Assembly (NCBI GenBank): GCA_965226585.1
Contig: OZ245366.1
Coordinates: 1,408,001 to 1,472,000, forward strand
Length of the DNA: 64,000 nt
Direction: 5' to 3'
DNA from: Thermodesulfobacteriota bacterium
Lineage (GTDB): Bacteria > Desulfobacterota_D > UBA1144 > Nemesobacterales > Mycalebacteriaceae
The notes under the pieces were generated by a model. That model had not been told where the DNA came from. It did no database searches and was given only the letters and a program-made list of their open reading frames with translations. A program made the position numbers and the translations under genes. Each line of letters starts with the position of its first letter. The stretch's first letter is position 1. Below, in pieces: positions 48,510-55,899 of the stretch.

Positions 48510-51008
48510 CTATAATACCCTAAAGACACTTTCGACAGGAAAAGAATCAGGATGTTCATTCTCGGATTGTTGTAAATAAGAATGGTTAAAGGTTTGTCTA
48601 ATTACATAAGGCTCATATAATGACTCTTCACTTCCATTCCTTTCGGTTTTATCCTCTAAAATCTCTTTAATAAATGCAGACTTGCCAGTCAAGCGAACCC
48701 TTTTATCTTCACCCGGCTTGGCGGAAAACTTATCTCTTGAAGGAGTAAGAAGGAAAACTCCTCTCCGCGCTCGCGTAACCGCAACATAAAAAAGTCGTCT
48801 TTCTTCCGCATTGGGAAAATCTGTATCCCCTCCAAGTATCATTTTCAGAACAGGGTCATTCTGTATTCCCGATGGGAATCCGTAGCCACTAATATCAAAT
48901 TTATTACCAAGTATCACAACCCAATCTGCTTCTCTGCCTTTGGAACTGTGAATAGTGCTGAATTCAACGTCAAGACCTTGTTCCTTGGCTTTTTCATGCA
49001 ATTTCTGCCAATGTGTGGGTTTGTTACTTTTGTCGTAGCGCCCCAAAACCAGACAACTCCTGCCATCATCAGAGCTTTGACGGAGAATGAAATCAAAAAC
49101 ATCCGTCAGTATTTGATTAGGTCTCCACGAATCATAACTAACAATTCTTATTGGTCTTGCCTTTTCATCAGATTGTACTGTAGAAGAAATATCCTTCTGT
49201 AGTTGCGCCTTATTCCTTGTAATAAAAATCCTGCTGAAATCACTTATCTTTTGAGAGAAACGAAATGTCTTATTCAAGTCTGTACGTTGCATGGCACCAA
49301 CATAGTCCTCAAAATGCGTAATCAAGTTGATATTTGCGCCCTGGAATGAGTAGATGGATTGCCAATCATCTCCAACACAGAATAGTCTCGCACCTTTTAC
49401 TTGTTTGCGTAATGCCAACAAAAGACGCAACTTACTAAGTGTCATGTCTTGGTATTCATCCACTAAAATATATTTAAACTTAGATTTCCATTCACCCTGC
49501 TCTATATATTGCCTGCCAAGAGCAATCATATCCGTATAGTCAATCTCATTATTTCTACTAAGTTGTTTTTCATAACATTCTCTAAACAAACTAAACAAAT
49601 CTATAAATACTCGATCCCTTTTCGACTCCGCCCGAGATTGGAGGTCAAAATTAGAAATTGAATTTTCTCTACACAAAGAAAGGAATTGATCTATCAATTT
49701 TATAAAATTGGAGATGGGCGCATATTTTTCACCTATAAGTTTGCCTATATGTTCTTTTGAAAGGAGGGTTTTCTCAACCCCATACTGGGAAAGTTTCTCC
49801 TCCAACGCTTCTGTTAAAGCACCCGCCCTCGTCGCCTCATAACTATATGTCTCAACAAGGGTAGTATTGTTTTGCCGATGCATTTCTCTTTTCCAACGAA
49901 TTCCTTCATTGTAAATTTTCTTATCAACCCAAGGAGCCGTGTTCCCTTTCTCATCTATGCCAAAATGTTCAATCCACAAGTCGTAATCCGGCAAATAAAA
50001 ATCCGGCTGATATACAGAATCACTATGAGGATATAACTCTTCGTATTTCCAATTTATTCCATTCAAAATTAACCAATTTGCTATTTGAACTTCTTGATGG
50101 CTCCTGAGCTCTACTCCGTCAATACTTTGCAATCCGGCATACTGAATATTTTCATAATACTCAGTATCTGTACTTGCTCCTTTTTCAGGATCTCCCTCGA
50201 ACCGATAGGTGGAAAAGTATTGAAGAAGCAAGTGAGATGAGGCACCGTCAAGTATTTCTTTTAGTTTATTTGTCAAGAACTTGAGACGTTGTTTCTTATT
50301 AACAAAGATACTCACTTTGGGCGGCTTCTTACAAACATCTTGCTCGTTATCAACCTCTTCTGGTTTAAAAACATTTTGTATAAGTTTATTCCCGAGAGAG
50401 TGAAAAGTAGATACTAAAACATCAGGATTGATATCATCCATCTTTCTTTGAATTTCTCTTTTAATATCTTTGTTGTAGGAAAGAACCAGAATCTCCTCCG
50501 GTTTTGCCAATTGACGATCTAAGAGATAAGAAACTTTGCCAAGAATCGTTCGGGTTTTCCCCGACCCTGCCCCCGCATTAATTAAATTCGCATCTTCATC
50601 TCTGACAACAGCAAGTTGTTGAGAATCTGTCAAACCCAGACGGTCAAAAAAATCTTTTGACTCTGCAAGTCTATTTTCTACGAATTTATTGTTAACTTCA
50701 TCCGTAAACTTGCTATCTCTGGCTTGCACATATTTTCTGCGTAAGGAATCACTAATAATGTCGCAATCTACTAGTGAATGGTCAAAATCCAGAATGATAT
50801 TCCTTTCCGTTTCAGACAAGCACTCTTTTGCTTTTTCCATGTTGAGATACTCGCCATATGCCAATGACTGGACACGCTTCTGAGCACTCTCAAAAGTACT
50901 AACAAAAGCCTCTGCATGTTTTTTCGCCCTTCTCTTTTGGAAGTGTCTTACAAACTCGTAGCAAGCAAATGTAAGAACAACAGCAAAGACAACAAGGTAT
51001 TCATCCAA
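48510..51008 (-). CDS. UvrD/HelD (helicase IV)-like SF1 helicase with inserted PD-(D/E)xK nuclease and N-terminal TM
   Basis: [44 protein letters not shown]; insert RSHQE..IAN...YQPDF...IEHFG; TTG start at the edge of the serS repeat. Confidence 0.85.
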
Positions 51009-51145
51009 TCCTCTCCACCCCATCCATATACTCAACCAACACATCAGGAACCTTCACACTCCCGTCCTTCTGCTGATAATTCTCAAGTATCGCCACAACC
51101 GTTCTTCCTATCGCAAGCCCTGAACCGTTTAACGTATGCATAAAC
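51006..51145 (-). repeat. Direct repeat of serS 3' end (copy 2)
   Basis: 134/140 identical to 54474-54613 by manual alignment. Confidence 0.97.
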
Positions 51146-52409
51146 ATCTGTTTTTAAGCCAACTCTCTACTATGTTTTCAACTACTACTGTATTTACAGC
51201 GTTGCCGAGAGCCTTGAAAGACGCCGAATCATTCCCTTCAACCATCTGGATTGAATCAAAACCCTGTAATCTCTGAGCTTCTGATACGCTCAAATACCTT
51301 TTCTCCCAACCAATTATCGGTGTTTGCGTACCAGTTAAAACGAATGATGGAACAGAGTCCTTCTTTTTAATTCGTATGCCTGAAGAACGAAACTGGAGTA
51401 AATGTTCGAAGATATCTCTTTTGCTATCATCTCCTGCGTTCCACTCCAGTTTTTGCCAACTGTTTACGAATGTTTTCACTCTAGGAATAAAATCTTTAAG
51501 ATTCTTTTTGTTATGTTTCCAGAAGTCTCGGTTTTTTTGAATGTAATTCACTTTCCACCGAGGCAACTTTCTTTCATTATAAGACGCATATACAGGCAAC
51601 CTAACTAATTGCTCTCTTTTCGGGATGCCCTTCAGACTTACACCAAAAGCTCCTTTGTAGCTCTCTAACTCTCTCTGTGTCATATAATAAGGAGCTTTTT
51701 TGTCCAAAGGGTAGTTTGCACCAAATTCCATCGCCCAGATGGGAAATTTCGGCATTGGACAATCTTTTGAAAGACGCTGAATAAAGTATTTCTGCCACAC
51801 CTTTAAGCAATTGGTCTGGTCTGAGTTAAGTCGTTTGTGAGCCTTACCACCTTCGAGATAACCGTCAAGCTTTTTCCGCGATTTTTCCTTAAATGTGATG
51901 CTTTCTCCATTACTCAACTCTTTTCTATGACCCAGAACAAACATTCTTTCCCTTTTGTTGGGCACACCAAAATGATGTGGCGACAGGATGTAATCCTGAA
52001 AGGAATAATCGCAATCCGAAAGTAATTCAGAGATTGTTTCCCATGTCTTGCCTTGGTCATGCCCTCTAAGATTAGAAACATTTTCCAAGATGAAGTATTT
52101 CGGCTTGTGAAATTTTAAGATATCTACTATGTAAAAAATCATGTTGCCCCTGTCAACATCTTTCAACCCTTTCTGCTTTCCTGCTTTTGAGAATGGTTGA
52201 CAAGGAAATCCGGCACACAAAATGTCATGGGCGGGAATATTATCTATTTGAATGCCTGTAACATCACCGTGGCATTCCATATCGAAATTTTTGCTGTACA
52301 ACCCTCTTAGTTCCTCATTGATTTCAGATGCAAAAACACACTCCATCCCGTGTTTTCTGAGTGCAATATGAAAACCACCAAGCCCTGCAAATAAATCAAT
52401 AAATTTCAT
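51129..52409 (-). CDS. DNA (cytosine-5)-methyltransferase
   Basis: [32 protein letters not shown]. Confidence 0.95.
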
Positions 52410-54348: not shown

Positions 54349-54465
54349 TTTGAAGTCCTTTCTAAAAGAAGAGAGCCCAACTCTATAACATTGCTCTTGC
54401 TTTAAACCCTCCAGCCCCATTGTATATGAGCAAGCATTTTGAGTAAAGAACCCAACTCTTCATTT

Positions 54466-55899
54466 TCATCTCTCAATCCTCTCCACCCCATCCATATACT
54501 CCACCAACACATCAGGAATCTTCACACTCCCGTCCTTCTGCTGATAATTCTCAAGTATCGCCACAACCGTTCTTCCTATTGCAAGCCCTGAACCGTTCAG
54601 CGTATGCACAAACGCCGTTTTTTTGCCGTCTTTGAAACGAATTCCCGCCCTTCTCGCCTGAAAATCCTCAAAATTACTGCATGACGATATCTCCCTGTAT
54701 GCCCCCTCGCCCGGAAGCCAGACCTCAATGTCGTATGTCTTTGCCGAAGAAAAACCCATATCCCCCGCGCACAATGTTACAACACGGTGGTGAAGCCCCA
54801 ACCTTTCCAAAATCCCGCAGGCATCAGCCGTTAAACTCTCCAACTCATCATAAGAACTCTCAGGACGCGCGAACTTTACCAACTCAACCTTGTTGAACTG
54901 ATGCTGTCTGATAATCCCCTTTGTGTCTTTTCCGTATGAACCCGCCTCTTTGCGGAAACAAGGCGTGTATGCCGTGTATTTAAGCGGCAAACCGTCTGCC
55001 GGAACTATCTCGTTACGATGTATGTTCGTAACCGGAACCTCGGCGGTCGGAATCAAGTAGTAATCCGTGTCTTTCAGTTTGAAAAGATCATCCTCAAACT
55101 TCGGAAGATTTCCCGTTGCGGTCAAACTCGCGCTGTTTGCCGCAAAAGGCGGAAGCGTTTCGGTGTATCCATTCTCCTTTGTGTGAATATCAAGCATAAA
55201 ACCCGCAAGCGCGCGCTCTAAACGCGCCCCCGCTCCAAAATAAAGCGCGAAACGCGAACCCGTTATCTTTGCCGCCCTCTCAAGGTCAAGTATTCCAAGT
55301 TTCGCCCCTATCTCATCATGCCTCTGCGGCTCAAAATCAAACGCGGGCTTCTCTCCCCAATTTCTCACCTCAACATTGTCGCCCTCTCCCAAGCCGGCGG
55401 GAACACTCTCGTGAGGAATGTTGGGAATCTGAAGCATTTCCGCCGTGATTTTTTCCTCAAGTTCCGCGCGCTCTGTGTTGAGAGACTTCACTTGTGAGGA
55501 AACGCCAGAAAGTGAGTCAACCAAAATCTGGCTCAGTTCTGTGAAGGTTAAAAGTTTTTCAGGAATTGTAGGTTGCAATGCTTCTCTTAATGCTTCCATA
55601 GCGCGGAGAATCTCATCTTTCTGCGTCGAAAGTTGTTCCAATTTGGCGAAATCACCACCATTCAAAATATAACGCAGTTCTGTAAAGGTTAACCCTTTGG
55701 TAGGAATCATGCCTTTAAGAGCCGCCACCTCGCGGGAACCCTCGTTTCTGCGACGCTCAAGATCCTCAACCTTCCCGATAACGGAACGCCGCGAACCCAG
55801 AAGATTGGTGAGAGCGGTGAAATCAAACTGAAAACCGCGCGCGGACAGTTTTTCCTTCACTTCATCAAGATTTTGTTCAACAAATTTCCAGTCAAGCAT
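54466..55899 (-). CDS. serS: Serine--tRNA ligase with insertion in the N-terminal coiled coil
   Basis: [41 protein letters not shown]; start ATG 55899 (MLDWK). Confidence 0.97.
54474..54613 (-). repeat. serS 3' end (copy 1, in the intact gene)
   Basis: Matches 51006-51145 with 6 substitutions. Confidence 0.97.

Follow-up and report, generated by a model that had tools for sequence, protein, structure and literature searches.

Why should the 3' end of an essential tRNA synthetase gene occur a second time, on the far side of a small gene cassette that carries no integrase of its own? We address this question for serS in a stretch of 64,000 nucleotides (the window) from a Thermodesulfobacteriota bacterium (GenBank assembly GCA_965226585.1, contig OZ245366.1, positions 1,408,001 to 1,472,000), in which an original prediction, made from the sequence alone, had noticed a 140-bp duplication of the serS tail around a 3.47-kb cassette. 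Our analysis suggests that the spare tail was left by an integrase-free insertion via host recombination, which would have inserted a predicted restriction-modification (RM) cassette behind serS and in front of a helicase gene that was there before; we put the probability of this reading at roughly 0.55. The locus belongs to a known type of scar, and its useful addition is a genus-level series of such scars, most of them around cargo other than RM genes.

The genome holding the window (G000) is a single contig of 1,484,247 bases, estimated to be 94.6% complete, with a mean G+C content (GC) of 0.516. It was compared with five relatives of the same genus (G001 to G005), with five serS loci fetched from genomes of other families, and with close strains X1 and X2 by way of unitigs or contigs; X3 contributed pieces of a helicase homolog only, and X4 to X6 are runs of one sample which may be the assembly's own source.

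The displaced serS tail

The serS gene (54466..55899, minus strand; PF00587, E 7e-43, and PF02403), the anchor of the hotspot described here, is intact and encodes 477 residues ending in GVERIER. Its functional tail at 54474..54613 matches a displaced copy on the same strand at 51006..51145 at 134 of 140 nucleotides with an offset of 3,468, exactly as first reported, and 3,328 bp separate the two; ungapped similarity runs on to 51155 and 54623 (150 nt, 93-94% identity, blast E about 1e-59), with no further copy of the repeat found elsewhere in G000. The mismatches, at 51034, 51051, 51112, 51130, 51132 and 51141, leave a longest identical run of 60 bp and translate into the codon changes V/M, L/L (two bases), A/A, I/V and V/V, in agreement with the earlier observation that the displaced copy still encodes the serS C-terminus with synonymous or conservative changes. 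The proposal that both tails are functional alleles did not hold, as the duplicate stays in the reading frame of serS for just 46 codons inside a 50-codon open frame and the older copies at other places have decayed. What is left is a scar, neither a gene nor a second allele. It ends in ERIG followed by a stop, vs. ERIER in serS, and the serS C-terminus varies past ERI among the compared strains.

The stop codon of the cassette's methyltransferase gene (51129-51131) falls within the repeat, as had been noted, and the identity block begins at 51129, the final base of that stop. Recognizing that three of the six mismatches also sit in the 17 bases adjoining the junction (14 of 17 alike there), we surmise that the true junction may be 51130, flanked by short similarity. 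Outside these 17 bp, 3 of 124 sites distinguish the spare tail from the functional one, and two of these changes occur in close strains too; away from the junction, the spare tail lies within close-strain variation, which argues against the foreign serS tail that had been invoked. As a separate observation, serS of G000 has additional sequence in the N-terminal coiled coil (window 55503-55714; 477 aa vs. 424-428 in G001 and G002), which is mostly missing from X2, with other sequence in its place in X1.

The duplication itself is well supported. In X4 and X5, mismatch-free single unitigs run from the helicase gene into the tail copy (44554-51081) and from the tail copy through the cassette to the end of serS (51082-54501), the latter being listed right to the serS end in X4, and the segment common to both copies stands at double depth (56.8 vs. 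27-28 in X4; 32 vs. 16 in X5); the 60-bp identical run is one that these unitigs are unable to phase. Cassette depth is close to that of the neighbouring helicase gene (26.7 vs. 28.1 in X4; 16.4 vs. 16.6 in X5), so that the amplification once envisaged for the cassette was not seen in the unitig depths of either run.

Tail scars at other core genes of the genus

Scans for displaced gene tails covered G000 and G003 completely and 1,400,000 of the 1,401,274 bases of G001, with about 780 core genes in each. Taken together, they yielded 11 tail copies of 34-154 bp at 10 loci, belonging to nine different genes and spread over all three genomes. Among direct non-core copies of core-gene segments, 7 of 11 were of this tail-downstream kind (three genomes), and further scans added four. 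In the relic scan, 513 tests facing a gene tail gave 16 passes and 579 facing a gene head gave 5; five of the tail passes were already known, and ten were inspected, with 3 kept and 7 dropped (two tRNA duplications, one hairpin repeat and four weak candidates). No copy longer than 160 bp at 85% identity or more was found near core genes in the three genomes. An exact tRNA-like duplication of at least 85 bp with short spacing was seen at G003 946400-946700.

Gene and cargo names at these loci that lack a Pfam match are putative and were read from the sequence. In G000, the gene that we take to be tyrS has a 56-bp tail copy followed by a presumed type I RM cluster (549873-553029), and a 438-aa gene has one of 47 bp (417225-419783), the mismatches of both lying at the 5' edge and being largely synonymous; presumably a glutamate-dehydrogenase-like gene (152 bp, decayed) and a trpE-like gene (34 bp) account for the others. 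G001 provides a nested case (1153618-1160039; L031, L244), in which we read the order as HAD hydrolase, AAA-ATPase pair, 34-bp tail, HicAB-like pair plus a cut UvrD fragment, 154-bp tail and helicase, both tails being taken as copies of the hydrolase gene (97% identity for the proximal, 92% for the distal); the helicase that ends this stack is 51% identical to that of the window. The copies in G003 belong to what are presumably an amidohydrolase gene (78 bp), a transporter gene (67 bp) and lipB (46 bp), and to serS itself, whose decayed 58-bp copy starts 58 bp from the stop, vs. about 140 in G000. One G001 junction cuts a UvrD gene, leaving a C-terminal fragment, and one in G003 shows an apparent gene start of 16 codons; cut cargo genes of this kind would be expected from random fragment ends. 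Where displaced tails were inspected, further non-core DNA separates them from the next core gene, and most scars bracket non-RM cargo, some of its family names being putative.

Across the phylum, G000 alone among 116 genomes with a match had a second full match to the serS-tail peptide, a test that undercounts, for it missed the short decayed copy of G003. Weak tail-like matches behind serS were present at 2 of 55 unrelated loci with at least 1 kb downstream.

Genes of the cassette

The cassette comprises three genes on the minus strand, and its description as integrase-free stands: no integrase or transposase was found among the three open reading frames (ORFs) in Pfam, NCBIfam and PADLOC scans. 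The first encodes a ParB-like protein (53236..54420, likely start 54333, 365 aa) with weak partial matches to PADLOC models PDC-M38A (E 8e-18) and PD-Lambda-5_A (E 1e-14); it has 532 homologs, the best non-self identity being 58%. The second (52406..53239) encodes a 277-aa protein, modelled with a pLDDT of 92.5, that is predicted to have an N-terminal winged helix and a restriction-endonuclease-like fold with conserved E105, D166, Q186 and K196, the first two invariant among homologs. VIA-align gave middling scores for this model, with Z 6-7.8 to the winged helix-turn-helix protein F-112, AF1548, MspJI, AspBHI and FokI (AF1548, Z 7.7, root-mean-square deviation 3.3 over 113 aligned residues; MspJI, Z 7.3; FokI, Z 7.0; restriction-fold matches altogether Z 6-7.7), and the best Foldseek E value was 1e-3. 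This protein had no Pfam or PADLOC match, its PDB profile search was empty and a word-index search returned itself alone. The third gene (51129..52421) encodes a C5-cytosine methyltransferase of 430 aa (PF00145, E 5e-69; TIGR00675), whose last codons and stop overlap the tail copy. We considered whether it is truncated, its closest homologs being about 20 aa longer; the conserved C-terminal helix is complete, 16 homologs of 418-452 aa have variable tails and several stop at the same helix, so truncation damage is unsupported. Collectively, the cassette is predicted to be an RM-like system, with the restriction gene recognized by its modelled fold.

Out of 483 related loci, the 80 best, which come from many phyla, were surveyed, and the family range of the 277-aa protein rests on them. 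The middle gene directly follows the ParB-like gene at 77, and a C5-methyltransferase homolog is present at 70; 74 had room for all three genes and the complete ordered trio was present at 54, with Vsr or a GHKL ATPase added at some. No serS match was near the trio at any of the 80. Short bracketing direct repeats were found at 4 of 44 testable loci and were absent from the other 40; loci L054, L059, L094 and L104 are bracketed by direct repeats of 35-42 bp. The ParB-like gene occurs in 6 of 120 phylum genomes and in none of the five same-genus relatives, and seven distant matches lie on viral contigs. This widespread trio had no match among the named defence systems covered by the profile scans. 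One likeness is to PD-lambda-5, given the weak match of the ParB-like gene to its A component and the linkage to a methyltransferase; the match covers profile positions 18-172 of 473, the cassette has an extra nuclease-fold gene, and PD-Lambda-5_B is absent among the 25 best of 63 methyltransferase matches, which include MTase_II, DruM, DrmMII and orphan models.

A promoter and terminator scan gave chance-level results. G000 strongly avoids the words GGCC, GATC, CTAG, TCGA, CCWGG, CGACG, GCWGC and GTSAC (observed/expected 0.1-0.3), which suggests long exposure to many RM systems; these words do not name the target of this methyltransferase.

The slot between serS and frr

The low-GC DNA at the locus spans about 10 kb (44.4-54.47 kb; GC 0.37-0.41 vs. 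the genome mean). While the 3.47-kb unit originally described is real, it is one layer of a stack, the one proximal to serS. Directly behind the displaced tail comes a separate layer with a UvrD/helicase-IV-like gene (48510..51044, minus strand, 844-aa ORF; PF00580, E 6e-41; NF008276 under its cut-off), then one encoding a 1182-aa protein (44792..48340, minus strand) with a partial Dsr1 match (PADLOC PDLC04166, E 8e-24, residues 488-1172), and finally a MazE-type antitoxin gene (44506..44745, minus strand; PF04014, E 3e-12), beside which the ORF list holds no toxin ORF of 60 aa or more. The convergent core gene frr (43724..44401, plus strand; PF01765) closes the hotspot. A candidate for a third, decayed relic of the serS tail, just ahead of the Dsr1-like gene (48347..48369, minus strand), matches at 18 of 23 bases, a score equalled by 259 of 2000 shuffles and by 11 of 782 other tails, and was rejected as not significant; the clear serS-tail relic of G003 lies at the equivalent position, before its Dsr1-like gene.

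The serS-frr site is a variable slot, of which G000 holds several alleles stacked. The two genes are direct neighbours in G001 and in all five other-family genomes, and extra DNA lies between them in 4 of the 5 same-genus relatives: behind serS, G002 has a helicase homolog (56%), G003 a split Dsr1-like homolog and G004 an AAA-ATPase group. X1 has 762 other bases in place of 44603-54471, plus a diverged MazE-type gene, and in X2 serS is joined to a diverged helicase homolog with a single tail and matching spacing (217 vs. 214 bases). The empty site that the original prediction called for is therefore seen in X2 and G002, as a cassette-free serS-helicase arrangement, with helicases too diverged for either to be the direct ancestor.

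Two further observations concern the neighbourhood. In G005, serS (L035:15403-18233) is split between two frames, and the frame of its 3' half stays open for about 520 additional residues, which may reflect a frameshift or assembly error plus a fusion to cargo. The window also holds four more low-GC cargo blocks between core genes (21043-25752, 27027-27581, 28757-29308 and 31710-37747; GC 0.38-0.41); tests of five gene ends at these blocks gave no clear tail copy.

How the spare tail may have arisen

We surmise that DNA of a related strain, with the 3' part of serS and the cassette, entered the cell, probably by natural transformation, and that RecA would have paired it with the chromosome through serS alone because its far end was without homology. 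That far end, at the methyltransferase stop, may have formed a non-homologous joint some 125-140 bp short of the serS end, aided by the short similarity there, either by circularisation of the fragment followed by a single crossover or directly in the chromosome. In this scheme serS would remain whole, the leftover tail would stay with the helicase gene and decay, and repeated rounds would build up layers of cargo, the most recent lying closest to serS; the cassette may be kept for defence, with post-segregational killing as a putative further role. The Campbell-type insertion of a circle put forward at first survives in part: an insertion that leaves serS intact, with a single RecA crossover as a live route, is retained, and circle plus single RecA crossover has a laboratory precedent (PMC3240628), while entry as a circle is indistinguishable from linear entry, as the product is the same.

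Several lines of evidence favour host recombination: 1) the spread over nine target genes, the shifting start points and the interrupted cargo genes speak for incoming fragments that were homologous at a single end, and against a site-specific enzyme; 2) a scar series found mostly around non-RM cargo, with nested and decayed examples, points in the same direction; 3) in the nested stack of G001, divergence is higher in the distal copy than in the proximal one, fitting proximal addition. A number of points weigh against this reading. A single head-upstream duplication, in G003 (625274-626844, a 116-bp head copy around a 343-aa gene), is the mirror image of a tail scar. The competence of G000 is inferred from three genes, recA, comEC and dprA, and the age order of the layers from a single nested stack in which one copy is 34 bp long. 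The recombination itself is deduced rather than observed. Plain single-crossover integration would also be expected to leave long duplications, yet none above 160 bp was found. Classical one-sided recombination is described in PMC3240628 as usually yielding deletions, not duplications. Lastly, the allele data fail to separate proximal from distal addition.

Distal addition is the strongest competitor, although we consider it distinctly less probable. Here serS and the cassette would already have been in place, and a fragment starting in the serS tail, carrying the helicase gene along with further DNA and held by homology on the frr side, would have been joined by its free end to the methyltransferase end by homology-facilitated illegitimate recombination (HFIR); the spare tail would then be the donor's, too short for pairing. 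This would account for the shortness of the copies and for displaced tails that run into more non-core DNA, and serS-helicase junctions that could serve as donors do exist. Relative to X1, the displaced copy also shows more differences (7) than the functional one (3, a figure inferred). The functional copy's base is carried at 5 of the 6 differing sites by X1 and at 4 of 6 by X2 (both inferred from difference counts, as the sites are not all listed); the displaced-copy base at 51112 is common to both strains, and that at 51051 occurs in X2 too. With a junction at 51130, however, just three differing sites remain for this comparison, and of the four bases found in the displaced copy alone, three fall inside the 17 bp next to the junction and could derive from the methyltransferase end. 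Distal addition further predicts that distal copies are the newest, opposite to the divergence seen in G001, and given that 5 of 6 serS sites are occupied, cargo behind a displaced tail is expected under either reading.

The proposal that the locus is the remnant of a site-specific element, whose tyrosine integrase was lost or acted in trans at the serS motif HTLNGSG, is largely refuted, and we regard it as unlikely. In its favour, the identity block begins at a 7-mer that is flanked in serS by imperfect inverted arms (7 of 10). As a palindromic attachment core this was rejected: it is not general, and the post hoc score is equalled at 1.5% of serS positions; the 7-mer occurs in 12 of 77 other serS genes. 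G000 has just two PF00589 genes, one over the XerD cut-off and one best to XerC slightly under the cut-off, there are 2-3 in each of the five relatives, and neither PF00239 nor PF07508 (serine recombinases) matched in G000. The phylum-wide peptide result, the different start points of the serS copies in G003 and G000 and the nine target genes fit a dedicated enzyme poorly, and the tail bases of close strains appear to agree with those of the functional copy, whereas an integrase would be expected to leave the host's original tail as the displaced one. Phage and plasmid searches gave 107 and 106 records, the 60 listed for each being annotated serS genes or unannotated, and a literature search gave no paper on integrase-mediated island insertion at serS.

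We think it more doubtful still that the cassette's own nuclease cut the DNA to insert, with the repeats allowing amplification and exit in the virus-like RM cycle hypothesised by Furuta et al. (2010). The RM-like cargo and the repeat-bracketed minority of trio loci lend this some plausibility, as does the amplification of repeat-flanked RM systems reported in PMC2853133; against it stand the non-RM cargo of most other scars (putative names), the even depth in X4 and X5 and the great majority of trio loci without repeats. A chimera assembled from two strains, or a free circle that the assembly folded into the chromosome, is the most improbable of all: the unphased 60-bp run, the possible origin of the assembly from the X4-X6 sample and a minority other allele in X4 (depth 3.9) leave room for that doubt, whereas the mismatch-free junction unitigs, the double depth of the shared segment, the equal cassette and helicase depth and the single-contig genome speak against it, and decayed copies elsewhere are not explicable as assembly errors.

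Relation to known systems

Insertion with long target duplication was reportedly first described by Nobusato et al. in 2000. Furuta, Abe and Kobayashi (2010; PMC2853133) define it for RM gene complexes; such insertions are mostly in competent species and often across a start or stop codon, mechanism and release are given as unproven, with an RM-common property such as DNA breakage suggested, and the supplements list further targets that may include similar genes. The serS locus is an example, most likely reached via one-sided homologous recombination. In line with their definition, it has a methyltransferase gene, an insert well below 20 kb, a repeat of 140-150 bp against a minimum of 30 bp, no other mobile-element gene and an empty site (X2 and G002, helicases diverged). 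The unique imperfect repeat at a stop codon, the intact target and the presence of competence genes add to the likeness. It differs in its restriction gene, a candidate predicted from a restriction-like fold that has no family match, in its target, an essential tRNA synthetase gene, and in a genus-wide scar around non-RM cargo in nested layers.

One-sided integration was studied in E. coli by Amarir-Bouhram et al. (2011; PMC3240628). Conjugation with one-sided homology gave a partial duplication in 56 of 60 clones, of 109-950 bp in the 14 sequenced; HFIR and recircularised fragments share with the serS locus one homologous end, one illegitimate joint and a target duplication of similar size. 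That was a laboratory system, whereas the scars here are natural, their origin inferred, with copies of 34-154 bp. By a different route, transformation can also generate tandem duplications with the help of repeats that are already present (PMC3784515). The E. coli H47 genomic island (Azpiroz and Lavina 2017; PMC5426353) is small, with long imperfect direct repeats and no recombinase; its excision, independent of RecA, was demonstrated, whereas our locus is known from its sequence. We now turn to likenesses that lie in the layout of the slot.

Minimal mobile elements of Neisseria place variable cargo between conserved flanking genes without mobility genes, and different cargo between the same two genes is what we find at serS and frr (G000 to G005, X1 and X2). 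Such elements just replace each other, whereas the additions described here leave a gene tail and stack. Integrative elements such as e14 and phage 21 at icd, and integrase-less cis-mobilizable elements (CIMEs), replace the 3' end of a protein gene so that the target is restored, with the displaced tail downstream and tandem stacking; at our loci there is no cognate integrase, no fixed crossover site and a choice of many targets.

Significance

Scars of this type have been on record since about 2000, and the genus offers a small natural set, 11 copies at 10 loci and mostly around non-RM cargo, that favours host recombination. We also entertain, as a speculation with the odds well against it, that in this lineage of small genomes the last 30-150 bases of core genes may serve as general handles, at which any cargo could be added by host recombination, newest first, and from which it could loop out as a tail-bearing circle that re-enters other strains. 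If true, this would amount to an integron-like traffic of cassettes without an integrase, and insertion with long target duplication would need no restriction enzyme.

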